A stretch of DNA of 64,000 nt from an uncultured Gemmatimonadales bacterium (GTDB lineage Bacteria; Gemmatimonadota; Gemmatimonadetes; Longimicrobiales; RSA9): the NCBI GenBank assembly GCA_963798085.1, contig CAWCRS010000001.1:96001-160000 (forward strand), read 5' to 3'. Each line of letters opens with the position of its first letter. Position 1 is the stretch's first letter. Below the pieces are notes generated by a model. It saw nothing but the letters and a program-made list of their open reading frames with translations, made no database searches and was not told the origin of the DNA. This document shows, piece by piece, positions 3 through 12,179 of this stretch. The position numbers and the translations under genes are program-made.

Positions 3-899
3 CTGCTGGCCAGCGGCGAGGACGATGCGTCGTTCGTCGTCGAGAGCGAGAGCAATGGCGCGTCGTATCTGCGTTTTGGCGATGACACGTTCGGCCGGCG
101 CCCCGCCGCAGGCACGGCTTTCGTTGCGAACTACCGTGTTGGCAACGGCAACAGCGGCAATGTCGGGCTGGCGGCGATCCGTCACGTGGTCAGCACCGAT
201 GGCCGGCTGACGGGCGCAGCCAACCTGCTGCCTGCTGCCGGTGGCATCGAACCCGAGACCATCGCGGAAGCGCGTCTGCGCGCGCCCGTCGCGTTCCGCA
301 CGCAGGAGCGTGCCGTCACACCCGACGACTACGCGCGTCTCGCGGAGACGCACCCGGAAGTGCAGCGTGCCGCGGCCGCGTTCCGCTGGACCGGCAGCTG
401 GCGCACGGTATTCCTGACCGTGGATCGCGTCGGCGGCCTGCCCATCGATGATACATTCGAGGCGACGATGCGTCGTCATCTGGAACGCTATCGTCTGACC
501 GGCCACGACCTCGAGATCGAGACGCCGGATTTCGTATCCCTCGAGATCGCCATGGATGTCTGTGCGGGGCCGGAACGCGCGGCGTCGGATGTGCGACGCG
601 AGCTGCTCGACATCTTCAGCGCGCGTCAGCTGCCCGATGGCCGCCGCGGTCTCTTCCACCCCGACGCGCTGACGTTCGGCCAGACAGTGTTCCTCAGCCG
701 TCTCTACTCGGCGGCGCAGAAGGTCGCCGCCGTGCGCACGGTGTCCATCACCACGTTCCAGCGGCAGAGCCAGCCGCTGTCGTCGGGCATTACCTCGGGC
801 CGTCTGGAATTTGCGCGCACGGAGATCGCCCGCCTCGACAATGATCCCGATTTCCCCGAGCACGGCGTGCTGACCATAACCGTGGGAGGTGGCCGGTGA
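3..899 (+). CDS. Putative baseplate assembly protein (baseplate J-like), 5'-truncated by the window edge
   Basis: The frame is open from base 3 (LLASGEDDASFVVE...LRFGDDTFGRRP...YRVGNGNSGNVG). It continues into the listed ORF 186-899 with RAVTPDDYA, FRWTGSWRTVFLTVDR and EIARLDNDPDFPEHGVL, typical of CIS/phage-tail baseplate proteins. Confidence 0.85.
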   Translation: MLASGEDDASFVVESESNGASYLRFGDDTFGRRPAAGTAFVANYRVGNGNSGNVGLAAIRHVVSTDGRLTGAANLLPAAGGIEPETIAEARLRAPVAFRTQERAVTPDDYARLAETHPEVQRAAAAFRWTGSWRTVFLTVDRVGGLPIDDTFEATMRRHLERYRLTGHDLEIETPDFVSLEIAMDVCAGPERAASDVRRELLDIFSARQLPDGRRGLFHPDALTFGQTVFLSRLYSAAQKVAAVRTVSITTFQRQSQPLSSGITSGRLEFARTEIARLDNDPDFPEHGVLTITVGGGR

Positions 900-3529
900 C
901 CGAGCCGCGGCTGCCTGACAGCGAGTTCGAGCGCAACCGCCACGCGGCCCTGCGCGCGCGTCTGCTGGCGCAGCTCTCGGCCGCGAATCACCCGGCGCTG
1001 GCCGGCCTGACATCGCGCGCGCCCGATGACTTCGTCATTGCGTTGCTTGATGCCTGGGCGGCGGCCGGCGACGTCATCAGCTTCTATGACGAGCGCATCG
1101 CCAACGAATCGTATCTGCGCACGGCGACGGAGCGCTTCTCCGTGCTCCAGCTCGCGCGGCTCATCGGCTACGAGCCTCGCCCGGGCCTCGCGGCGGAGAC
1201 TTTCCTGGCGTTCACACTGGAGACCGCGATCGGCGCACCGCGCGCGGTTACGATTGCGCCGGGCGCCAGGGTGCAGAGTCAGCCCGGCCCGGGCGAGCTG
1301 CCGCAGCTGTTCGAGACCGTCGAGGAGATCCCTGCACGACCCGCGTGGAACGCGCTGGTGCCACGTCTGAGCGTGCCCCAGAACGTGACCGTGAACAACG
1401 CTTCGTTCACGGTGGCCGCCGGCGCCGCGATCCAGCCTGGTGATGCACTGTTAGTGCGTGCGGGCGGCGCCTTCCAGGTGCGGCGCGTGCGCCGCGTCGT
1501 ACCTTCGCCCGATGCGCGCACCACCCGCCTCGATGTGAGCACGGGCGCCACCGGCACGGGTGCGCTGGTCGAGCTGTCCACCGGCGCCTTCGCCGCGCCT
1601 TTCACGGATGCCGCGCCGCTCAATGCAAACACCGTGAACAACCGCATCCTCGGTCGCAAATGGCATCAGGCGGACCTGCTGGCGCTGGCGGCCGCGCAGC
1701 AGTGGCCGCTCGACAAACTCACGGCCGCGATCCAGGGCCAGCTCGCGGCGCGCGCCTCGGCCTCCGCCGGAGAGCTGTACGTGATGCGGCAGCGCGCCGC
1801 GCTGTTCGGCCACAACGCGCCCGCGTACGAGTCGCTCCCCGCATCACTGCGCTTCACGAGTTTCCGCGAAGCCACCAAGACGACCGCGGGCATCGCGACG
1901 TTCGCATCGGTCGGCGCCGCATTCGGCACGAACTGGGAGAATCGCACGGCCGCACAGGAGGCCGGGTCGCAGCCGGTGATCTTCCTCGATGCCGTGTATC
2001 CCGGCATCACACCGGGCGGCTGGGTGGTGCTGCGCGACGGCGACAACCAGCGCGCCTATCAGATCACGGACGTCGGCGAGGTGGCGCGCACGTCGTTCAC
2101 CTTGAGTGCAAAGGTTTCCCGCCTGCTGCTCAACACCGCCGCCGATCTGGGCCTCTTCAAGCTGCGTACCACCACCGTGCTGCTGCAGAGCGAGCCGCTC
2201 ACGCTCACGGGTGTTCCAGTGGCAGCACCGGTGGCCGGCAGCGCCATCCAGCTCGACTCGCCGTATCTCGAGCTGCGGGCGGGACAGCGACTCGCCGCCA
2301 GCGGCCCGCGTGCCGACCTGGCCGGTGCAGCAGCGGGCGAAGTGCGCTCGCTGGCTGACACCGTGCTGGACGACGGCCGCACCGTGCTCGTGCTCGACCG
2401 TGCGCTCGATTTCACATACGTGCGCAGCGACCTGCAGCCGGAGGGGCGGGTTCGCCTGTGCGCCAATGTCGCGCGCGCCACGCACGGCGAGTCCGTGAGC
2501 GAGATCGTGGGCGCCGGCAATGCGCGCAAGCCGTTCCCGACTTTCGCGCTGCGCCAGTCGCCCCTGACGTTTGTGAGCGCTGCCACGCCTTCAGGCGAGG
2601 CGTCCACGCTCGAGCTGCGCGTAAATGATGTGTTATGGAAGGAAGTGCCCACGCTCGTCGGCCAGGCCGCCACGGCCAGGGTGTTCTCCACGCGCGTCGA
2701 GGATGATGGCAGCACCACGCTGCAGTTCGGCGATGGCAGTACGGGCGCCCGCCTGCCCTCGGGCACGGACAATGTGCGCGCCACGTATCGCAAGGGCATT
2801 GGCACGGCCGCCCTGCTGGATGCGGACCGGCTGACACTGCTGTTGACGCGGCCGCTGGGCGTCAAGGATGTGACCAACCCGGTGCCGGCAGTGGGTGCGG
2901 ACGATCCGGAATCACGCGATGCGGCGAGGCGCAATGCGCCGCTCACCGTGCTGACACTGGGCCGCATCGTCTCACTGCAGGACTACGAGGACTTTGCGCG
3001 CGCCTTCGCCGGTATTGCCCGCGCCTTCGCCACGTGGATGTCGCTGGGCAATGAGCGTGGCATCCTGCTCACGGTCAGCGGTCCCCGCGGCGAGGATGTC
3101 GCGGAAGGCAGCGTACTGGCGGGCAATCTGCTGAGCGCCATCGCGCAATCCGGCGATCCCAGGGTGCCCGTTCGCCTGGTGAATCGCAGCCGCGTCTGGT
3201 TCCGCCTGGACGCGCGCGTCCGCACGGATCCCGACTTCACCCGCCTCAAGGTCCTGGCGCAGGTCGAGCAGGTGCTGCGCACGCGCTTCGGCTTCGATGC
3301 CCGCGACTTCGGGCAGGCGGTCACGCTCGCCGAAGTCATGGCCACCATGCACGAAGTGGCGGGCGTTGTCGGCGTGGATGTCGATGCGCTGTACCGCCCG
3401 GACGAGCAGGGCGCCATTCCTAACACTGTCGTACCCTCCCATGTGCCGCCCGCCGGCACGGCGCTGGCCACACCCGCCGAGCTGGTGCTGCTGGACCCCC
3501 GGCCCCTCAACTTCGCGGAGCTGTCGTGA
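896..3529 (+). CDS. Putative baseplate assembly protein (second baseplate J-like protein)
   Basis: N-terminal DDFVIALLDAWAAAGDVISFYDERIANESYLRTATER...LIGY, internal FGDGSTGARLPSG and C-terminal RIVSLQDYEDFARAFAGI. GTGA overlap with the upstream gene. Confidence 0.88.
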   Translation: MTEPRLPDSEFERNRHAALRARLLAQLSAANHPALAGLTSRAPDDFVIALLDAWAAAGDVISFYDERIANESYLRTATERFSVLQLARLIGYEPRPGLAAETFLAFTLETAIGAPRAVTIAPGARVQSQPGPGELPQLFETVEEIPARPAWNALVPRLSVPQNVTVNNASFTVAAGAAIQPGDALLVRAGGAFQVRRVRRVVPSPDARTTRLDVSTGATGTGALVELSTGAFAAPFTDAAPLNANTVNNRILGRKWHQADLLALAAAQQWPLDKLTAAIQGQLAARASASAGELYVMRQRAALFGHNAPAYESLPASLRFTSFREATKTTAGIATFASVGAAFGTNWENRTAAQEAGSQPVIFLDAVYPGITPGGWVVLRDGDNQRAYQITDVGEVARTSFTLSAKVSRLLLNTAADLGLFKLRTTTVLLQSEPLTLTGVPVAAPVAGSAIQLDSPYLELRAGQRLAASGPRADLAGAAAGEVRSLADTVLDDGRTVLVLDRALDFTYVRSDLQPEGRVRLCANVARATHGESVSEIVGAGNARKPFPTFALRQSPLTFVSAATPSGEASTLELRVNDVLWKEVPTLVGQAATARVFSTRVEDDGSTTLQFGDGSTGARLPSGTDNVRATYRKGIGTAALLDADRLTLLLTRPLGVKDVTNPVPAVGADDPESRDAARRNAPLTVLTLGRIVSLQDYEDFARAFAGIARAFATWMSLGNERGILLTVSGPRGEDVAEGSVLAGNLLSAIAQSGDPRVPVRLVNRSRVWFRLDARVRTDPDFTRLKVLAQVEQVLRTRFGFDARDFGQAVTLAEVMATMHEVAGVVGVDVDALYRPDEQGAIPNTVVPSHVPPAGTALATPAELVLLDPRPLNFAELS

Positions 3530-5556
3530 CCATTACCGCCGATCGGCTCGCCGGGCTGCTGCCGGCCCTCTATCGCGTCCGCGATGCGGAGGCGGGCGGA
3601 CCGCTGCAGGCACTGCTCGAAGTCATTGCTGCTTCCATGGCAGACCTCGAGGAGGAGATCGAGCAGCTTTACGACAATCAGTTCATCGAGACCGCTTCGC
3701 CTTCGGTACTGCCGTGGTTCGCCGATCTCGTGGGCGCGCGCGCCTTCGGCCTGCCCGTCGAGAAGGATGAGACGCAGCCGGAGCGCAGTGCGGAATCGCT
3801 GCGCGCGCAGATCGCCAACACGGTGGGTAACCGGCGCCGTCGCGGCACGGCTGCAGCACTCGAGCAGGTGGCGAGGGACATCACGGGCTGGGACGCCGTC
3901 GTCGTCGAATTCTTCCAGCGTCTTGCTGCCACGCAGGCGCTGCACCACCTGCGGCCCGGCAACATCGTGACCGCAGACCTGCGCGACATTGCCGGCCTGG
4001 ATCGCGTCGGCTCGGCCTTCGAGCCCGTCACGCGCACGGTGGACGTGCGCCGGATTGCCTCGGGCCGCGGTACGCACAACATCCCCAACGTCGGCATCTT
4101 CCTCTGGCCGTTCCGCGCCGAGCGGTGGGTGCTGTCCCCCGCCTTCGAGATCGATCCCCGGCGCTTCGTGCTGCACCCGCTCGGCATCGACGCGGCGCTG
4201 CGCACAGATCCCGTGGCCGAGCGTTCGCTGGCCGGACTGGCGCAGCCGCTCAACCTGCCACTGCCCATCAGCCGCCGCGCCATGGACGCCGCGCTGGACG
4301 ACTACTACGGCGCCGGCAGAAGTCTGCTGCTCAATGTGGATGGCGTGCCCGTTACGAGCAACGTGTTAGTCGCCGACCTGTCGAATGTCGGCGCGGATGA
4401 CGCGTCCGGCTGGTCCTGTGCGCCCGCTGCAGGCGACATTGCGGTGGACCCCGTGCTCGGCCGCATTGCCTTCCCGCCCGCGGCGCCGCCGCCCACCACG
4501 GTGCGCGCCAGCTTCTTCGCTGGGCATCGCACGGGCATGGGCGGTGGCGCCTACGAGCGCGCCGCCAGCTTCCGCTCGCCCGGCTCCGTGCTCGCGCAGG
4601 TCACGGGCGCGGTCAGCACGATCCCCACCGCCATCGCACAGGTGCTGGATGGCGGCACCATCGAGATCACGGACAGCGATCGCTACATCGATTCACTCCT
4701 CATTCAGGCGAATGACAACGCGCAGATCGAGCTGCGCGCGGCCAACGAGCACTTCCCGCACCTCGCGCTGCCCGACGACTTCGAGATCAATGGCGACGGC
4801 ATCGAGGTCTGGCTGAATGGCCTGCTCATCAGTGGCGCCGCGATTGTCGTGGGGCCGGGCGTGGCGCAGGTGCACATCCGCCATTGCACGCTGGTGCCCG
4901 GCAGCGGCCTGAACCGCAATGGCACGCCCGTCGACACCACGGCGCCGTCGCTCATCATCGAGGGCACCGCCACCAGCGTCGAGATCGAGAGCAGCATCGT
5001 CGGCACGGTGCACCTCACGCGCGGCTCCTCGCTCAGCGCGCGTTACAGCGTCATTGATGCCACAGCGCCGGACGGCATCGCGCTGGCCAATGGCACACTG
5101 GCCGCTGCGGGTGGTGCCGTGTCGCTCGAGCAGTGCACGGTGATCGGCAAGGTGTGGACGGAACAGCTGGATGCATCCGACAGCATCCTGTTTGCCCGCC
5201 TGGCCGCCGCCGATCCGTGGACCTCACCGGTGCGCAGCGAAAAGCGACAGGAAGGCTGCGTGCGTTTCAGCTTCGTGCCGCCGGGCTCGCTCACGCCGCG
5301 GCGCTACCGCTGCCAGCCCAATGCCGCGCACACCGGCCTGCTCCCGCGCTTCCGCACCCTGCGCTTCGGCCTGCCGGACTACGCCCTGCTCGCGAAGAAC
5401 TGCGCGCCCGAGATCGCGGAAGGCGGGGATGATGGAGGCGAAATGGGCGCGTTCGTAAGACTGCGTTTGCGCCAGCGCGTGGCCAATCTGCGGGCCGCGC
5501 TGCCGGAGCATCTGCGATTCGGGCTCGAGGCCGGCACTTTCGTGTCGGAACTCTGA
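3526..5556 (+). CDS. Phage tail/baseplate wedge protein (P2 gpI-like N-terminus)
   Basis: LLPALYRVRD...IEQLYDNQFIETA...LPWFADLVG...RAQIANTVGNRRRRGTAAALEQVARDITGW, plus C-terminal GCVRFSFVP...EMGAF. Translationally coupled to the baseplate gene. Confidence 0.75.
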   Translation: MTITADRLAGLLPALYRVRDAEAGGPLQALLEVIAASMADLEEEIEQLYDNQFIETASPSVLPWFADLVGARAFGLPVEKDETQPERSAESLRAQIANTVGNRRRRGTAAALEQVARDITGWDAVVVEFFQRLAATQALHHLRPGNIVTADLRDIAGLDRVGSAFEPVTRTVDVRRIASGRGTHNIPNVGIFLWPFRAERWVLSPAFEIDPRRFVLHPLGIDAALRTDPVAERSLAGLAQPLNLPLPISRRAMDAALDDYYGAGRSLLLNVDGVPVTSNVLVADLSNVGADDASGWSCAPAAGDIAVDPVLGRIAFPPAAPPPTTVRASFFAGHRTGMGGGAYERAASFRSPGSVLAQVTGAVSTIPTAIAQVLDGGTIEITDSDRYIDSLLIQANDNAQIELRAANEHFPHLALPDDFEINGDGIEVWLNGLLISGAAIVVGPGVAQVHIRHCTLVPGSGLNRNGTPVDTTAPSLIIEGTATSVEIESSIVGTVHLTRGSSLSARYSVIDATAPDGIALANGTLAAAGGAVSLEQCTVIGKVWTEQLDASDSILFARLAAADPWTSPVRSEKRQEGCVRFSFVPPGSLTPRRYRCQPNAAHTGLLPRFRTLRFGLPDYALLAKNCAPEIAEGGDDGGEMGAFVRLRLRQRVANLRAALPEHLRFGLEAGTFVSEL

Positions 5557-5603
5557 CAGGTCAGCGTACCCGCACCGCGCGGGTACCGCACAGGAGATCG
5601 ACC

Positions 5604-8405
5604 ATGCACGGCGACTTCAGCCGCCAGACATTCGAGCCGCGCAAGCATTATGCGGGCGTGCTGCTGCAGCAGGGTCGCGTCCAGACCAATGCGGACTGGA
5701 ACGAGGCCACGCAAATCGGGCAGCACCAGCTCGAGACCACGGCCGCCAATGTGATCGGCCCGACGGGTGCTCCCCGTGATAACGCCGGGTTCCAGCTGAG
5801 CGCCGCGGGCGCCACCCTCAACATTGGCGCCGGCCGCTACTACGTCGACGGCATCCTCTGCGAGAACGAGGCGGCCCTGGCGCTCAGTGCGCAGACCGGC
5901 GCGGCGCCACCCGCGGGCGCCGGCCTCTACGCCGTGTACCTCAATGTGTGGCGCCGCCATGTCTCGGCCATCGAAGACCCGTCCATTCGCGAGCCGGCAT
6001 TGGGCGGGCCCGATACGGCAACGCGTGTGCAGACCGCATGGCTGGTTCGCCTCGTGCGCATTGGCAATGCCAACGCCAATGCGGTGTGCAGCACGGTGTC
6101 GCCGCAGTGGCAGGCCACACTGCCCGCCAGCACCGGTACGCTGCGCGCGTCCACGCAGGCGGTCGCTGCGCCCACCACGCCCTGCGTGCTGCCCGCCAGT
6201 GCGGGCTATCGCGGCCTCGAGAATCAGCTCTACCGCGTGGAAGTGCACGGGGCCGGCAACCAGGCAACCGCACGCTTCAAGTGGTCGCGCGAGAACGGCT
6301 CCGTGGTGGCCGCCGTGGAGAGCGTGAGCGGCGCCGATGTCACACTGCGCGACCTGCGCACCGATGACCCCCTCGGCTTCGCCCAGGGCGACTGGGTCGA
6401 GCTGATCGATGATGCGCTGGAAGCCGCGAACCAGCGCGGCGATCTCTTCCAGATCGCGCAGCTCGCGCCCGAGATCCGCCGCGTGACGCTCAATACCGCA
6501 CCCGCGCTCGTGGCTAACGCGGCATTGCACCCGCGGCTGCGTCGCTGGGACCAGACGGCGGGCGCCACCAGCCAGGGCGTGTCCATGGTGCCGGGCGGTG
6601 GCGCCACCTCCATATCGCTGGAGCGCGGCGTCGAGGTGAGCTTCGGCGCGGGCCAGTACAATGCCGGCGACTACTGGCTCATTCCCGCGCGCACCGCGCT
6701 GGGCAACGAGCTGGGCACCATTGACTGGCCCGCGGGCCAGTTCCTGCCGCCCGCCGGCATCCGCCACCACTTCGCGCTGCTCGGCGCGTTCAACTTCGAT
6801 GGCGCGAACTTCAGCGCCACGACAGCGGCCGACTGCCGCGAGATCTTCCCGCCGCTGACCGATCTGCACGCAGTCGACGTGGCCTATGACGCCGGCGCCT
6901 GCAGCGACCTGGCGGGCGTGACCACCGTGCAGCAGGCGCTCGATGTGCTGTGCGACCGGCGGGAGGAGTGCTGCGGCATCGTGCTCGAGCCGCTGCCCGG
7001 CTGGGAAGCGGCCTTCGACCAGATCCCGGCCGGCGGTCACGGCCACTTCTGCTTCCGCGCGGCCGACTATCCGCTGGCGGCCACGAAGACCATCACCGGC
7101 AAGGGCACGATCCTGCTGACGGGAGCCGGTCCCGCGAGTCGCATTGTCACCAACAACGAGTGCGCGCTGCTCTTCTCCGGCTGTACCAGTGTGACGGTGC
7201 GCGATGTCGCGTTCATCAGCGGCAGCCCGGGCAAGCCCGTGACTGGCCTGAAGGCGCTGAACGGCGTGCTCACCTGCGACAACGTGGCTGCGGTCACCAT
7301 TGAGCACGTCTCCGCCAGCTGCTCCGCGTCTACGCGCAAGAAGAGCGCATGCCTGGCCGTGCGCAATGCCGCGGTCGCGAGCGCCACCGCGGCCGGACCC
7401 GGAACGGTGCGCATCCGTGGCTGCGACATCGAGGTGGGCTATCAGCAGGTGGGCATCCTCGTGGTCAATGCGCTGCGCGCCACCATCGAGGACAACGCGC
7501 TCCGCGTCGGTCCCGACGTGCCGGCGGGCGCGCAGATCCACCGCCGCATCACGGACCCGGCCGTGCGCGCGCCCATCAGCAAACTCCTGGTTAAGGCGTC
7601 TGTAGCGAAAGCCGCGGGCTCGTCCGTGCCCGCGCCGGTGGTCACCACGGCGGCCGGCGGCGCCATCACGCTGCGCGCGGGCGCGCAGCAGGTCAACTTC
7701 TCCACGGATCCCTCGCTCGCGCCGGCGTGGTCCGCGCTCATCGCCGCCGCACCGCCCACCGACACCACCACCGCGGCGGCTGTCGCCGCGTACGTCAGCT
7801 CGCTCGCCAATCGCGTGCTCTTCGACCCGACGTTCCGCGAGCAGTTCGCGCTGCTGCGCACCTGGTTCGACACGCTGCGCGCCGACAACCCTCCCGCCGC
7901 GGCGCAGGGCATTGTCGTGGGCGGCCAGGTCGCGCGTGACGTGCGCGTCCGCGGCAACACGCTGTCAGGCATGATCGAAGGCGTGCACATCGGTGTGAGC
8001 CACCGCGAGGGACAGCGCGGTACGCCCGACAGCGCCGGCACCGTCCTGATACGCGACAATTCCATCGACACCGTGCTGCCTGCCGCCACCACGCGCCAGC
8101 GTTATGGCATTTACCTCGGCAACTGCGACAGCGCCGTGATCGAGGACAACTTCATCAGTGTGCAGCGCACCGTGCTCACACTGCGCATGCACGTGGATGG
8201 CATCCACATCTTCGGACGCATGGGCCGGCGCCTGATCGTGCGCCAGAACCACCTGCGCGGCTTCCAGACCGGCGTCGCCTTCACCCCCACACCGGCATCG
8301 CTCACGGCGTCCCGGCTCTGGGTGGTGGCGGAAACCATGGCGGAGTCCGCCAGTGTCGCCGTGACGGGGCCGGCGAGCCTGATCCAGGCGAACAACATCA
8401 AGTGA
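5604..8405 (+). CDS. DUF6519-domain protein with C-terminal right-handed beta-helix (putative tail fibre/spike)
   Basis: Starts MHGDFSRQTF...VLLQQGRVQTNADWNE and contains GYRGLENQLYRVEVH, FKWSRENGSV and GDYWLIPARTA. The C-terminal part has PbH1-like repeats (ATIEDN, VRVRGN, VLIRDN, AVIEDN, IVRQN). RBS AGGAG at ~5592. Confidence 0.8.
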   Translation: MHGDFSRQTFEPRKHYAGVLLQQGRVQTNADWNEATQIGQHQLETTAANVIGPTGAPRDNAGFQLSAAGATLNIGAGRYYVDGILCENEAALALSAQTGAAPPAGAGLYAVYLNVWRRHVSAIEDPSIREPALGGPDTATRVQTAWLVRLVRIGNANANAVCSTVSPQWQATLPASTGTLRASTQAVAAPTTPCVLPASAGYRGLENQLYRVEVHGAGNQATARFKWSRENGSVVAAVESVSGADVTLRDLRTDDPLGFAQGDWVELIDDALEAANQRGDLFQIAQLAPEIRRVTLNTAPALVANAALHPRLRRWDQTAGATSQGVSMVPGGGATSISLERGVEVSFGAGQYNAGDYWLIPARTALGNELGTIDWPAGQFLPPAGIRHHFALLGAFNFDGANFSATTAADCREIFPPLTDLHAVDVAYDAGACSDLAGVTTVQQALDVLCDRREECCGIVLEPLPGWEAAFDQIPAGGHGHFCFRAADYPLAATKTITGKGTILLTGAGPASRIVTNNECALLFSGCTSVTVRDVAFISGSPGKPVTGLKALNGVLTCDNVAAVTIEHVSASCSASTRKKSACLAVRNAAVASATAAGPGTVRIRGCDIEVGYQQVGILVVNALRATIEDNALRVGPDVPAGAQIHRRITDPAVRAPISKLLVKASVAKAAGSSVPAPVVTTAAGGAITLRAGAQQVNFSTDPSLAPAWSALIAAAPPTDTTTAAAVAAYVSSLANRVLFDPTFREQFALLRTWFDTLRADNPPAAAQGIVVGGQVARDVRVRGNTLSGMIEGVHIGVSHREGQRGTPDSAGTVLIRDNSIDTVLPAATTRQRYGIYLGNCDSAVIEDNFISVQRTVLTLRMHVDGIHIFGRMGRRLIVRQNHLRGFQTGVAFTPTPASLTASRLWVVAETMAESASVAVTGPASLIQANNIK

Positions 8406-8866: not shown

Positions 8867-10855
8867 CTAACCGGCGCCCTCGCCGGGGACGCGCGTCGCG
8901 GGCGGAGCCGCGGCAGCGGACCGGCGCAGCATCCATCCGTAGAGCAGCACGATCAGCCCGACGAAGCCGAGCACGCCCAGCCACGGTCCTGGCACGAACG
9001 TCTCTGGAACCACAGCGAGCGGCGCGTCCTTCGACGTGGCTACGATGAGGCCGGCGTTGATCACGCCCCAGATGCTCTCGCCTACGATGAGGCCGGACGC
9101 CACGAGCGTGCCCAGCCGTTGCGCACGTCCGGCATCCGGCATGGGCCGGCTGCGCCGGTCGTACCAGTGCGACAGCACCGCACCCACGACTACGGCGAAC
9201 ACCGCGGACATGGGCAGATAAATCCCAATGCCAACAGCGAGCGGCGGGATACGCAGCTTCTTCATTGCACCCAGCACAGCGTCCACCACGATGAGCCCGA
9301 CACCGATGACGGCGCCGATAAGGATCATCTTCCATTCCAGACTGCCGCCGATCACACCCTGCGCCAGCGCCGCAATGAGCGTGGCCTGCGGCGCGGGCAG
9401 CGGGTTCAGGGCGACCACACCGATGTTGGCTGCGCCCGCGAAGCCGTACGCCTTCGCCAGAAGATTCAGCACGGACGGAATCACGGCCGCGCCCGCACCC
9501 ACGCCGACGATCAGCGCGATCTGCTGGCGCATCGGCGAAGCGCCCACGAGCTGGCCGGTCTTGAGATCCTGGAGGTTGTCGTTCGAGATCGTGGCGCACG
9601 CGAAGACGATGGCAGTGACGAAGAGTGCGAGGGCGACGAGCGCGGTGCGATTATCCGCCGTGGGCGGCACTGCGATGGCCAGCACCCAGGCGCACAGCAC
9701 GATCGAGAGGATGCCCACGCCCGAGACCGGACTGTTGGAGGCGCCGATCAGCCCCGCCATGTACCCGCAGATCCCCGCGATCAGAAAGCCGCCGATCAGA
9801 ACGAACGGGACCGCAACCAGCGTGAGCCGCGTCGCATGCTCCGCAAGCACGGTGCCGCCCGCGAAGGTGTACGCGAGCCAGCCCGCCAGCAGCATGCACG
9901 CGCCGGTGAGCGTGAGAATCCAGAAGGGCGAGAGATCGCGATCGAGTTCGTCCTGGCGGCCCGTCGCACGCGACGCCGCAAGGGTGCTGACCAGCCCGCC
10001 TAACACGGGCTTTGCCAGGGTCGCGAGCGTGTAGATCGCGGCCACGCCGATCGTGCCCGCACCAATGAAACGCACCTGCGTGCGCCAGATCGTCAGTGTG
10101 TGCGCCGCCAGCGTGACGCCCGCCGCCGCCGGCTGCATGGACGTGAGGATCGGCACCGTGATGCCCCACGCGATCACCAGACCCGTGAGCATCGCCATGC
10201 CCACCGACAGCCCGACCAGGTGCCCCGCCCCCACCAGCGCAAGCGACCACGCGAAGTCGTATCCGCTCGAGGCCATCGCGCCAATGCGGAAGAACCCGCT
10301 GACCCCGCCCGCTGCAATCCGCGTCGCCGTCACAATCGCGAGCCCCGCAGAAGCGACGGAACCGTAGACCACGGCGCGCAGGCCCTCGCGCGCCTCGCCT
10401 GTTTCGTCCTTCGTCTCGCCCCGCGTACCCGAACCCACCTTCAGCACTTCGGCGGCCGCCACGCCTTCCGGATACGGCAGGTCCGACGTCGTCACCAGCG
10501 CGCGCCGCAGCGGAATCGTGAAGAGCACACCCAGCACGCCGCCGCTCACGCAGATCAGGAACGACTGCCAGAACGGGAAGCCCGTCCACCAGCCGATGAT
10601 CACGAGCCCCGGCAGCACGAAGATGATGGCCGAGAGCGTGCCCGCCGCGGACGCGACCGTCTGCACGATGTTGTTCTCGAGGATCGTCGAGTCCTTCACC
10701 GCGCTCAGCACCGCCATCGAGATCACCGCCGCCGGTATCGACGAGGCGAAGGTCAGCCCGACCTTCAGGCCGAGGTACACGTTGGCCGCCGTGAACAGCG
10801 TCGTGATCAGCGCACCCAGGATCAGGCCGCGGATCGTGAGTTCCCTGGGTTTCAT
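8867..10855 (-). CDS. OPT family oligopeptide transporter
   Basis: ELTIRGLILG...ANVYLGLKVGLTFASSIPAAVISM, ENNIVQTVASAAG, LPYPEGVAAAEVL, NDNLQDLKTG and LPAPQATL, with many TM segments. Confidence 0.95.
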   Translation of the reverse strand: MKPRELTIRGLILGALITTLFTAANVYLGLKVGLTFASSIPAAVISMAVLSAVKDSTILENNIVQTVASAAGTLSAIIFVLPGLVIIGWWTGFPFWQSFLICVSGGVLGVLFTIPLRRALVTTSDLPYPEGVAAAEVLKVGSGTRGETKDETGEAREGLRAVVYGSVASAGLAIVTATRIAAGGVSGFFRIGAMASSGYDFAWSLALVGAGHLVGLSVGMAMLTGLVIAWGITVPILTSMQPAAAGVTLAAHTLTIWRTQVRFIGAGTIGVAAIYTLATLAKPVLGGLVSTLAASRATGRQDELDRDLSPFWILTLTGACMLLAGWLAYTFAGGTVLAEHATRLTLVAVPFVLIGGFLIAGICGYMAGLIGASNSPVSGVGILSIVLCAWVLAIAVPPTADNRTALVALALFVTAIVFACATISNDNLQDLKTGQLVGASPMRQQIALIVGVGAGAAVIPSVLNLLAKAYGFAGAANIGVVALNPLPAPQATLIAALAQGVIGGSLEWKMILIGAVIGVGLIVVDAVLGAMKKLRIPPLAVGIGIYLPMSAVFAVVVGAVLSHWYDRRSRPMPDAGRAQRLGTLVASGLIVGESIWGVINAGLIVATSKDAPLAVVPETFVPGPWLGVLGFVGLIVLLYGWMLRRSAAAAPPATRVPGEGAG

Positions 10856-11142
10856 GGGCGCTCATAGTACGGCGGGCAGGCGTTTCCGTGCGAGGGCCGC
10901 GAACCGCGTTGGACTCCGATGGCAGGCCCGGCTCCCTGGGGCTCGCTCGGCAATGGATCGGACAGCCGGCAATCCGCGGTCGATGGAAGAGCGCAGAGCG
11001 GTCACGGCGCGAACCCCGACACTGCCGCTTTCGTCAAGCCGTTCCGCAGCAACGAGCCCCAGCAACCAGCCCCGGCAACGCAGCCCTTCCGCGCCCTCTA
11101 CTCCTGCTCTCACCCAGGGGTGGAACTGCATCGTTGGATCTA

Positions 11143-11171
11143 TTGACCGGGGAAACCGACGTCGCGACATT
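11143..11171 (+). promoter_or_regulatory. sigma70-type promoter for the downstream small RNA
   Basis: TTGACC (11143-11148), 17-bp spacer, GACATT (11166-11171). The predicted start site falls at ~11178-11179, the first base of the RNA's terminal stem. Confidence 0.55.
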
Positions 11172-11178
11172 TCGCTTC

Positions 11179-11301
11179 GACACGACGCAATCTCCTGGTA
11201 GAGGCGTGTTGGTCAGTACAAAGGTCTGCTATCGTGGCATCGTCTTCGAAAGCGTTTCTGAGGAAAGCTGATTCGTAGGGTTCGAATCCCGCGTCGTGTC
11301 A
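11179..11301 (+). ncRNA. Putative tRNA-like small RNA (~123 nt, non-canonical cloverleaf)
   Basis: Perfect 10-bp end pairing GACACGACGC/GCGTCGTGTC plus an unpaired A. D-arm-like TCTC-CTGGTA-GAGG and T-arm GGG-TTCGAAT-CCC. Lies in an ORF-poor, lower-GC gap between a promoter and a terminator. Confidence 0.65.
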
Positions 11302-11302
11302 T

Positions 11303-11335
11303 TGGGCGAGCCTCTCGGCTCGCCCATTCTATTTC
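11303..11335 (+). terminator. Rho-independent terminator
   Basis: 10-bp stem TGGGCGAGCC-tctc-GGCTCGCCCA followed by TTCTATTTC on the + strand. Confidence 0.8.
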
Positions 11336-11378
11336 TGCCCACACCGCTTCACACCTGCCCGTCCACCGACGTCGCGAC

Positions 11379-12179
11379 TCACCCGGAGTGCAGCCGCGTC
11401 GATACCGCATCCCCGGTCCACGAGGACTCCGGGAAGGAGCGGAACGCACCCCGCCGCCACGTGCCGGCCCGCCGTAGATGCGCCACGGCTTCGCCTCGCC
11501 GGCGCACGCGCAGCTTTTCCAGAATGTTGTGCACGTGATTCTTCACAGTGGAAAGACCAATCCGCAGGCGGCGCGCGATTTCCTTGTTGGAGAGGCCCTG
11601 CTCGATCAGCTCGACGATCTCGCGCTCGCGGGTGGTGAGCGACGCTTCCGTGTCCACCGGGGTCGCGCGCGCATCGGTCAGGTCCGCGACGCGGCGGAAC
11701 AGCATGCCGGCCACGCGCGGTGAGCACCACGCCTCACCTCGCACCACGCCCTCGAGCGTGGCCATGAGATCGCTCAGGCTGGCACTGCGCGGGACATACG
11801 CCGCCACGCCCGACTCCGCACACGCCAGCACCGCACTCTCGTTGTCCTCGACGGCGAAAGCCACGACGTGCATCGTCGCCTGCAATCTGCGCAGCTGACG
11901 GGCGGCCTCGAACGCATCACGCATTGAGATGTCGAGCAGCACCACGTCGGGCGACATCTGCTCCGCCTGGACGAGGGCGCTCTGCGCATCCGTTGCCACG
12001 GCCGCGACGCGCAGGGCCGTGGAGCCATCGAGTGCGCGCGTCAGTCCGTCGCTGAGCAGCCGCACATTGGTGATGACGAGCACACGTATCCCGGCACCGT
12101 CGTGAGGCGCGACTGGGGAGAGAGGAGCGGACGAGGTGGACGGGACCGCATCATCCCGCGGCAGCGATAACCCGGCCAT
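11379..12179 (-). CDS. NarL/FixJ-type response regulator (REC + LuxR HTH)
   Basis: Receiver motif PDVVLLDISM and LuxR HTH LTTREREIVELIEQGLSNKEIARRLRIGLSTVKNHVHNILEKL. Start uncertain. Confidence 0.92.
   Translation of the reverse strand: MAGLSLPRDDAVPSTSSAPLSPVAPHDGAGIRVLVITNVRLLSDGLTRALDGSTALRVAAVATDAQSALVQAEQMSPDVVLLDISMRDAFEAARQLRRLQATMHVVAFAVEDNESAVLACAESGVAAYVPRSASLSDLMATLEGVVRGEAWCSPRVAGMLFRRVADLTDARATPVDTEASLTTREREIVELIEQGLSNKEIARRLRIGLSTVKNHVHNILEKLRVRRRGEAVAHLRRAGTWRRGAFRSFPESSWTGDAVSTRLHSG

Follow-up and report, generated by a model that had tools for sequence, protein, structure and literature searches.

Species 1 RNA (RNAC) of phage T4 is an anticodon-less RNA with a top half like that of a transfer RNA (tRNA), a long end stem and an insert that replaces the anticodon loop. 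Anticodon-less RNAs of this kind belong to phage genomes, where they frequently sit within tRNA clusters or long messages, and several of them show conservation between related phages. In the selenocysteine tRNA, tRNA-Sec, the branch formed by acceptor and T stems measures 13 bp (PMC7609411), and soil and sediment bacteria carry (9/3) allo-tRNAs, named by the base pairs of acceptor and T stem, some of which are discussed as possible regulatory non-coding RNAs in the account of Mukai et al. 2017 (PMC5389517). The same account presents inactive allo-tRNA(UAU) species with destabilized stems and varied junctions, polycistronic irregular tRNAs, an extra loop and a “38-nt D-loop” pseudo-tRNA, as well as “pseudo” tRNAs from soil metatranscriptomes that carry large insertions. 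Here, we analyzed a tRNA-like element of about 123 nt at positions 11179-11301 on the plus strand of a 64,000-nt stretch of DNA (the window) from an uncultured Gemmatimonadales bacterium, which an initial annotation had taken for a stand-alone RNA gene of a possibly undescribed kind. With roughly even confidence, we read this candidate from its sequence as a single-copy, lineage-restricted small RNA that would derive from a tRNA with a long acceptor and a short T stem, of the tRNA-Sec or allo-tRNA kind, that would not decode, and that is probably a relic or strain-specific. Its orphan status and a competing fold place a relic or strain-specific RNA ahead of a conserved tRNA-mimic machine, which is the less likely of the two.

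The ends of the candidate read as those of a tRNA. The 5′ strand GACACGACGC (11179-11188) and the 3′ strand GCGTCGTGTC (11291-11300) form the perfect 10-bp terminal helix that had been described, with ten of ten pairs Watson-Crick at pair probabilities of 0.997-1.0, no mismatch and no G-U pair, and an unpaired discriminator A follows at 11301. By our own estimate, a few 10-bp inverted repeats at such spacing (~100 nt) are expected per 64 kb, and thus the helix alone proves nothing. An AA linker (11189-11190) and the D-arm-like hairpin TCTC-CTGGTA-GAGG (11191-11204) are present as annotated; judged from its bases, the arm is better described as UCUCC-UGGU-AGAGG, a stem of five positions with one C-A mismatch around a UGGU tetraloop, in the style of tRNA-Sec and allo-tRNAs. 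On the 3′ side, the T-arm-like hairpin GGG-TTCGAAT-CCC (11278-11290), which has a consensus T loop, abuts the 3′ strand of the helix, and the proposed direct stacking of the T arm on the helix is thus upheld as far as sequence abutment goes. The T stem is limited to 3 pairs, the next positions, U-A on the 5′ side against G-C on the 3′ side, being mismatched, and a 9/3 reading would put an unpaired G between T stem and acceptor. Canonical tRNA features are found in both loops, namely a UUCRANY T loop with a G53-C61 pair (GGG-UUCGAAU-CCC) and G18-G19 in the D loop (CUGGUA). The T-arm 13-mer GGGTTCGAATCCC occurs in eight copies in the source genome (G000; 6.2 Mb, a 90% complete assembly), seven of them within ARAGORN calls of tRNA or transfer-messenger RNA (tmRNA) genes and the eighth in the candidate. 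When the genome was scanned for arrangements of long acceptor and short T stem, the candidate was the only 10/3 case without a G-U pair and with a consensus T arm. Taken together, the combination of features beyond the helix does not look like chance as read in the sequence. No CCA is encoded, as had been noted, and this lack is normal in a genome where CCA is rarely encoded (it follows none of the 53 ARAGORN tRNA calls, and only the tRNA-Sec call includes one).

The candidate is probably a stand-alone transcription unit on the plus strand, with a promoter of the type used by the tRNA genes of its genome, to judge from the signals at its two borders. A custom motif scan places a promoter-like site exactly where it had been annotated, with the −35 element TTGACC at 11143-11148, a 17-nt spacer and the −10 element GACATT at 11166-11171, which lies 7 nt ahead of G11179 and predicts a start at or next to this base. 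The custom scan counted 60 occurrences of TTGACC-N17-NANNNT on both strands of the genome (12.5 Mb), or ~4.8e-6 per base, and a chance promoter 7 nt before the helix is unlikely given this rarity. Read by eye, the promoters of stand-alone tRNA genes in the genome consist of TTGACC or TTGACN, a spacer of ~17 nt, TAnnnT and a leader of 5-14 nt, and they precede tRNA-Asn, tRNA-Met, tRNA-Pro(tgg), tRNA-Gly(gcc) and tRNA-Gln. With the promoters of tRNA-Asn, tRNA-Met and tRNA-Pro(tgg) the candidate shares both its −35 (TTGACC) and its 17-nt spacing, and its −10 is weaker. A stricter scan for the sigma-70 consensus listed no promoter at the site because GACATT fits TATAAT at only three of six positions. 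Downstream, a terminator scan found the annotated intrinsic terminator on the plus strand only, 2 nt past A11301; it consists of a 10-bp stem with 8 G-C pairs (11303-11326), a loop of 4 and TTCTATTTCT, the whole covering 11303-11335. On the minus strand, the same hairpin is followed by ATGACAC and has no U tract. Both flanking genes lie on the minus strand, in agreement with the annotation, and no other feature of the plus strand would call for a terminator at this place. The tRNA-like ends fit in register with the promoter, the start point and the terminator. No RNA sequencing run containing the region was found. Six DNA runs each contained 5-9% of the sampled words, and contigs from four of them included none over 10886-11371 and one 192-nt X1 contig identical over 11395-11586; coverage by DNA runs gives no information on expression.

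Between the D and T arms lies a middle region of 73 nt (11205-11277). The annotation had seen no canonical 7-nt anticodon loop in it, and we likewise found no 5-bp stem with a 7-nt loop one base past the D stem. Folding of the region offers a candidate hairpin UUG-GUCAGUA-CAA (11209-11221), a CUUCGAAA loop (11244-11251), a candidate hairpin GC(G)UUUC-UGAG-GAAAGC (11252-11268) and an outer stem GGUCAGU/GCUGAUU that pairs 11211-11217 with 11267-11273. Folded alone, the middle reaches only −13.4 kcal/mol, with several near-equal alternatives. Two stretches recall an anticodon loop. The GUCAGUA loop, which would present CAG, a Leu anticodon, sits on a stem of 3 pairs, and the CUUCGAA(A) stretch, one change away from the anticodon loop CUUCAAA of selC, closes only as an 8-nt loop. 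As read from the sequence, neither forms a usable anticodon arm. Two other readings of the middle were rejected. A 21-codon open frame from GUG to UGA, considered as a tmRNA-like tag, is the tail of a 127-codon open reading frame (ORF) and shows no bias in third-position G+C content (GC3) and no tag-like end. A D-like hairpin at RNA positions 46-60, considered as a second D arm arising by internal duplication, was judged by eye and found unconvincing.

The predicted folds of the whole RNA are less favorable to a tRNA shape than its ends. The minimum free energy (MFE) structure, at −43.3 kcal/mol (z −2.57; 1 of 200 shuffles as good), is without the D arm and without the 3-bp T arm, and the tRNA-like fold reaches −37.9 kcal/mol. 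A rival hairpin of 6 bp, GAUUCG-UAGGGUU-CGAAUC (11270-11288), belongs to the MFE structure at a probability of 0.81 and buries the T loop, and the ensemble also prefers to engage the D-arm sequence with RNA positions 46-59 in a long bulged hairpin. The initial annotation had the RNA keeping the D/T elbow of a tRNA, a claim that the ensemble does not bear out, with probabilities of 0.01 for the D arm and 0.13 for the T arm. Energy models often misjudge real tRNAs, and coaxial stacking and tertiary contacts are ignored by them. Because the model leaves out these contributions, and because 3-bp T stems function in allo-tRNAs, the tRNA shape is not refuted by the energies. Nevertheless, the modeled energies are real evidence against taking the tRNA shape for granted.

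Known RNA classes do not claim the candidate. The annotation had left it to tRNA finders and family models to recognize a known RNA, and neither ARAGORN nor Rfam does so. At default settings ARAGORN reports no tRNA or tmRNA gene in the window. With the threshold set to 80% and introns permitted, the program yields nothing but a forced “tRNA-Arg(tcg)”, whose T stem is mismatched and whose 33-nt insert sits at a non-canonical position. The whole window has no match in Rfam 15 at gathering thresholds; at E ≤ 10, positions 11050-11450 yield only a 17-bit SorY match, which corresponds to the terminator, and a 13-nt T-arm fragment, and the models for tRNA (RF00005) and tRNA-Sec (RF01852) do not match even at this level. 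A Y RNA was considered and rejected. The YrlA model (RF02553) has no match on the region at E ≤ 10, and the candidate is not among its 16 matches at E ≤ 10 in the whole genome, all below cut-off and mostly tRNA genes and the junctions between them. The candidate has D before T and free ends, and the Ro60 (TROVE, PF05731) model found no match in the 90% complete genome, with positive controls in Deinococcus and Bacteroides, leaving a Y-RNA role without its partner. RtcB is encoded, unlinked, on contig C7. A tmRNA, which joins a tRNA-like domain to a tag-peptide frame and pseudoknots in ~350 nt, was rejected as well, since the RNA is only 123 nt, Rfam gives no tmRNA match and the real tmRNA is at C7:1551847. 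Four other ARAGORN calls in the genome, 86-, 93- and 77-nt “tRNAs” and a permuted “tmRNA*” (C2:175341, C3:548265, C3:737937, C7:1552113), look like false positives, with poor T loops and a coding-like context.

The candidate is close to several described systems and identical with none. Ordinary tRNAs combine a 7-bp acceptor with a 5-bp T stem in a 12-bp branch, and the candidate does not. A branch of 10+3 = 13 bp without a usable anticodon arm matches, as had been claimed, none of the splits 7/5, 8/5, 9/4, 8/4 and 9/3 given in PMC5389517 and PMC7609411. With the (9/3) allo-tRNAs presented in PMC5389517 it shares a longer acceptor, a 3-bp T stem, a consensus T loop, a D arm that can be read around a TGGT tetraloop and a soil origin. 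Set against the same allo-tRNAs, its branch is 13 bp and not the 12 bp of an 8/4 or 9/3 split, its linker is AA, its discriminator is A and not mostly G or U, and the tetraloop reading of the D arm needs one C-A mismatch. Where these allo-tRNAs have an intact 6-bp anticodon arm and one variable arm, the candidate has 73 nt between D and T arms, in which an anticodon stem forms at best 4 of 6 pairs and the following region, of 53 nt, is branched. The GGAGGG-type 5′ acceptor of the rows listed there is absent, and the likeness, read by eye, is one of architecture. The inactive allo-tRNA(UAU) species and irregular tRNAs of the same account likewise carry extra stems or large insertions, and they are inactive in translation and proposed to be non-coding or linked to mobile elements or toxin-antitoxin genes. 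Those RNAs are polycistronic or lie near toxin-antitoxin or transposon genes, whereas the candidate is solitary, with a transporter gene on one side and a regulator gene on the other. Given that non-decoding allo-tRNA-like RNAs with extra stems and insertions are known from soil bacteria (PMC5389517), the term “undescribed kind” in the annotation was too strong; measured against that account, the kind is not new, and the 10/3 split and the stand-alone setting are.

The source genome encodes SelA (C7:1393820), SelB (C7:1548542) and tRNA-Sec (C7:1567194) and appears, from these genes, to use selenocysteine. Its own selC (C7:1567194-1567292) is a normal tRNA-Sec with the D arm CCGTCC-TGGT-GGGCGG. 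The candidate resembles tRNA-Sec in its 13-bp total, its 2-nt linker, its D arm with a TGGT loop, its long stretch between anticodon and T arms and the similarity of CUUCGAA(A) to CUUCAAA. It differs in that the branch is split 10/3 and not 8/5, in having neither an intact anticodon arm with UCA in a 7-nt loop nor G73, and in that the 6-bp D stem and 4-nt loop of tRNA-Sec are represented by 4 pairs plus a C-A mismatch around TGGT. YrlA and other bacterial Y RNAs (RF02553) resemble the candidate in that they do not decode, contain a D/T module like that of a tRNA and have the anticodon arm replaced by a long irregular stem. YrlA is, however, circularly permuted with T before D, has a closed acceptor, ends in a Ro60-binding stem and lies beside rsr, in contrast to the tRNA order and free ends of the candidate. 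From the anticodon-less phage RNAs the candidate differs in being chromosomal, in having its own promoter and terminator, and in that no relatives of it were found. Among phage contigs of IMG/VR, a tRNA-Glu(ctc) (L176) has ends that can pair over 10 bp and a tRNA-His(gtg) (L180) ends that can pair over 9 bp, both next to GGG-TTCGAAT-CCC with 3 real T-stem pairs, and the 10+3 arrangement thus has a natural precedent. These tRNAs, natural decoders with a long acceptor and a short T stem, differ from the candidate in being 72-74 nt long with normal anticodon arms and in being called by ARAGORN; the D stem of L176 is in competition with its tenth end pair, and neither tRNA is related to the candidate in sequence.

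Searches for relatives returned the candidate and nothing else that could be accepted. The annotation had counted homologues with compensatory changes in the stems as the mark of a real RNA, and none was found in the genome, metagenome and viral collections searched. In a BLAST search of 61 genomes, which included the one other species of the genus, the only genome matched (1/61) was the source genome itself; within it there is no paralogue, BLAST matches being only 14-27 nt at E > 1, and the 3′ half of the candidate matches no tRNA of the genome. A covariance model (R1) was built from the tRNA-like core and the outer middle stem of the single sequence, and is weak as a single-sequence model. 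At E ≤ 1 it matched 2 of 73 family genomes, the source genome and G009 (18.5 bits), and 5 of 151 phylum genomes, the source genome and four others at 19.7-27.1 bits. On inspection, these other matches were rejected as homologues, since the T loop is retained in none of them and the four phylum loci contain no ARAGORN gene call. One of them, at locus L022, has a 17-nt D-arm string in common with the candidate, but the DNA there reads as coding. The pattern of D arm, N60-85 and T arm gave no hit in genome contigs (185,579 species) or in metagenome contigs of JGI. A 17-mer spanning the mismatched T-stem base occurs at 46 genome loci, none of which has an acceptor of at least 9 bp within 200 nt, and four of which show 7-bp pairings attributable to chance. 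When 16 of the 46 were run on Rfam, no family matched on the 17-mer itself at the gathering score; three lie near an ordinary tRNA, and one (L036) is ~270 nt away from a YrlA. Pattern scans of viral contigs (IMG/VR) gave 1 and 17 loci, none related, and BLAST against phages and plasmids gave no match or two chance matches of 43-46 nt. Scans for an exact pattern miss sequences that differ in the pattern, and the result is accordingly that no relative was found in the collections searched.

The genomic neighborhood, suggested in the annotation as a check, does not point to a conserved unit either. The candidate is flanked by a gene for an OPT-family oligopeptide transporter (8867-10855, minus strand) and one for a LuxR-type response regulator (11379-12179, minus strand), in a spacer of 523 nt between the start of the former and the stop of the latter. 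Orthologues of the transporter in two relatives, G003 (82% identity) and G010, have different DNA upstream, with no candidate RNA in G003, and no close orthologue of the response regulator turned up in G001, G003, G010 or G075 (best 34%), so the locus is not syntenic with its relatives. Metagenomes supplied 80 transporter loci at 74-85% identity, of which 56, from soil, extend more than 500 nt upstream. RNA and regulator are absent from all 56, where R1 gave one partial match of 11.4 bits (E 4.8) and the best BLAST match was 23 nt. Neither neighborhood is conserved, and no partner gene is linked to the RNA, the neighbors being the transporter and the response regulator. The initial annotation had held that the lack of a transcript and of homologues with compensatory changes would indicate a decayed tRNA or a chance arrangement, and by that standard the absence of homologues from the searches is fully compatible with a decayed tRNA.

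Our preferred reading of a relic or strain-specific small RNA can be laid out as a course of events. By its sequence signals, RNA polymerase would start at or next to G11179 and stop at the hairpin of 11303-11326, yielding a primary transcript of ~150 nt. In this transcript the 10-bp helix and the stacked 3-bp T hairpin would make a 13-bp minihelix that presents the T loop. Going by what tRNA 3′-end enzymes are known to recognize, such enzymes may trim the transcript to A11301 and add CCA, leaving a stable RNA of ~123-126 nt. Since the sequence of the 73-nt middle offers no intact stem that would hold a 7-nt anticodon loop at the proper distance, the RNA would have no role on the ribosome. With no relative found and a hairpin that competes with its own T arm, it would most likely be a relic, either young or in decay, or at most a regulatory RNA specific to the strain, and not a conserved machine. 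Several points weigh against this reading. The donor tRNA was not identified: the best global alignment to 53 tRNAs is with tRNA-Ser(cga), at a score of 73.1, which is barely above the shuffles (mean 58.3, sd 3.5, maximum 73.3 in 200) and is driven by the common T arm, so no donor is clear. A relic should gather mismatches, whereas this one has a flawless 10-bp helix, T arm and terminator; such parts fit recent origin or selection equally well. Simple decay would not turn 8/5 or 9/3 into 10/3, a step for which several changes must be coordinated. In the thermodynamic model the ensemble disfavors both arms (D arm 0.01, T arm 0.13), and processing by tRNA enzymes is therefore not assured. GACATT is a weak −10 element, and the expression of the candidate is predicted from sequence signals.

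A functional tRNA mimic is unlikely but deserves some weight. Such an RNA would form a true D/T elbow on its 13-bp branch and, for proteins that recognize the shape of a tRNA, act as a decoy, a scaffold or a sensor, with the rival hairpin as a possible switch; candidate targets are the selenocysteine machinery, which measures the 13-bp branch, enzymes that modify or process tRNAs, and toxins that target them. The preservation of every stem and signal argues for it, as do the D-loop G-G and T-loop UUCGAAU, which in established tRNAs supply the elbow-forming bases. SelA, SelB and a normal tRNA-Sec are encoded in the genome, and the branch has the 13 bp given for tRNA-Sec in PMC7609411. By our estimate, a 6-bp rival hairpin would arise at that spot by chance at a frequency of ~0.2-1%, and given this low chance it may be designed. 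Conservation, however, is lacking in every collection searched, the ensemble hardly forms the D and T arms, no partner gene is linked and the neighborhoods are not conserved, and the rules for SerRS as laid out in PMC5389517 are at odds with the discriminator A and with a variable region that forms no clean long arm. In a fuller version, the candidate would be a new tRNA-mimic architecture with a 10/3 branch, a Sec-like D arm, an irregular stem for an anticodon arm, its own promoter starting at the mature 5′ end and a hairpin that could hide or expose the T loop, acting as a switchable decoy for SelA/SelB or for elbow readers; this is doubtful, and we rate it below both the simpler mimic and the following alternative. 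An ordinary small RNA in its MFE fold, which we hold a little less probable than the simpler mimic, would use the helix to close a junction of the long bulged hairpin (RNA 16-59, loop GUCAGUA) and three short hairpins, with its tRNA motifs as ancestral residue, and would work through base-pairing or the binding of proteins, with the transcript of the convergent response-regulator gene or the leader of the transporter gene as possible targets. The gap between −43.3 and −37.9 kcal/mol, the z of −2.57 and the possession of a promoter and terminator of its own are in its favor. Yet the helix that led to the choice of the element also contributes to the z-score, and the energy model is frequently wrong on real tRNAs and takes no account of coaxial stacking or tertiary contacts. 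No target or conservation is known, and this reading does not explain why a consensus T arm abuts the helix exactly.

The two remaining explanations fare less well. That the locus makes no RNA is improbable: on this account it would be a relic at the DNA level, either similar to a miniature inverted-repeat transposable element (MITE) with 10-bp terminal inverted repeats or debris of integration targeted to a tRNA, and its promoter and terminator would be coincidental. The genome does hold a tRNA 3′-end copy left by integration, of tRNA-Thr(tgt) at C5:515258, and the locus is not syntenic with relatives. A MITE should occur in multiple copies with a target-site duplication, but the genome contains the candidate only once, without any further copy or fragment of it, and no flanking direct repeat was seen on reading the flanks. 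Both acceptor halves are present, unlike in an att remnant, the 3′ half matches no tRNA of the genome, and promoter, start point and terminator are in register. A prophage or att origin was likewise rejected, as there is no integrase among the annotated neighbors and the phage-like genes upstream form an extracellular contractile injection system (eCIS) cluster and not a prophage. Least probable by far is an active irregular decoder, similar to an allo-tRNA, with a 10/3 branch, GUCAGUA (CAG, for the Leu codon CUG) or CUUCGAA (UCG) as its anticodon loop and a very long, branched variable region. It would be in keeping with the (9/3) allo-tRNAs described in PMC5389517, which have TGGT D loops, T stems of 3 bp and anticodons for Leu, CAG among them, and a U precedes CAG in the candidate. 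The stem of GUCAGUA, however, has only 3 contiguous pairs, or 4 of 6 in a Sec-like register, and U instead of a purine after the anticodon; CUUCGAA closes only as an 8-nt loop on 3 pairs; and the variable region takes up 53 nt against roughly 15-25 nt, by our estimate, in the allo-tRNA rows of the same account. ARAGORN and Rfam reject the candidate, and the genome already holds tRNA-Leu(cag) and a full tRNA set.

To our knowledge, the RNA biology of Gemmatimonadota is almost unstudied. If the candidate is expressed and folds as a tRNA, it would extend the acceptor/T-stem splits of 7/5, 8/5, 9/4, 8/4 and 9/3 to 10/3, and it would add a chromosomal, stand-alone member to the anticodon-less look-alikes, which so far come mostly from phages and acidobacterial soil metagenomes. 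A single orphan locus settles no wider question, and its value is that of a documented case and of a search template for further genomes of the lineage.

The surroundings of the candidate and the searches yielded some minor observations. The ORFs of the spacer have a GC3 of 0.51-0.79, against 0.82-0.87 in both neighboring genes (the genome is 67% G+C), and none shows the GC3 bias typical of real genes here. The eCIS cluster, on the plus strand, looks complete, extends over C1:80828-96000 of the source genome and 186-8405 of the window, and ends ~2.8 kb before the RNA; it encodes a tail sheath, a gp19-like tube, Pvc16_N, an AAA ATPase, eCIS_core, a spike OB-fold protein, Baseplate_J, a Mu Gp48-like protein and DUF6519. 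Elsewhere in the genome, 22 tRNA genes for most amino acids are packed into 3.7 kb (C5:189593-193300), an unusually dense array. A stretch of 28 nt from the 3′ end of tRNA-Thr(tgt) is repeated exactly at C5:~515230-515258 on the minus strand, 7.7 kb from the gene itself (C5:522984-523056, minus strand), and reads as the signature of an island or prophage integrated into tRNA-Thr(tgt). Near-identical copies of ~110 nt with 10-bp inverted ends, 21.7 kb apart at C2:403022-403131 and C2:424690-424800, may be the ends of a duplicated segment or mobile element. Four of the loci from the genome searches, in Rhodanobacter / Dyella (L029, L033, L036, L053), share a conserved element of ~100 nt at ~310-430 that ends in GGG-TTCGAAT-CCC; in L036 a YrlA gene (72.4 bits) follows ~270 nt downstream, and the element could be a second Y-RNA-like gene of the rsr locus missed by Rfam. 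Among the IMG/VR contigs, L165 carries at ~300-440 on the minus strand a tRNA-shaped sequence whose ends can pair over 12 bp; it has a T arm of 5 bp, its middle is longer by ~60 nt, and ARAGORN does not call it. Nine large phage contigs (L166, L168-L170, L172, L175, L177, L178, L182) contain a recurring short module, GGTGC...TAGGGTTCGAATCCCGCAC..., whose sequence suggests an acceptor/T-arm minihelix that lacks the other parts of a tRNA.

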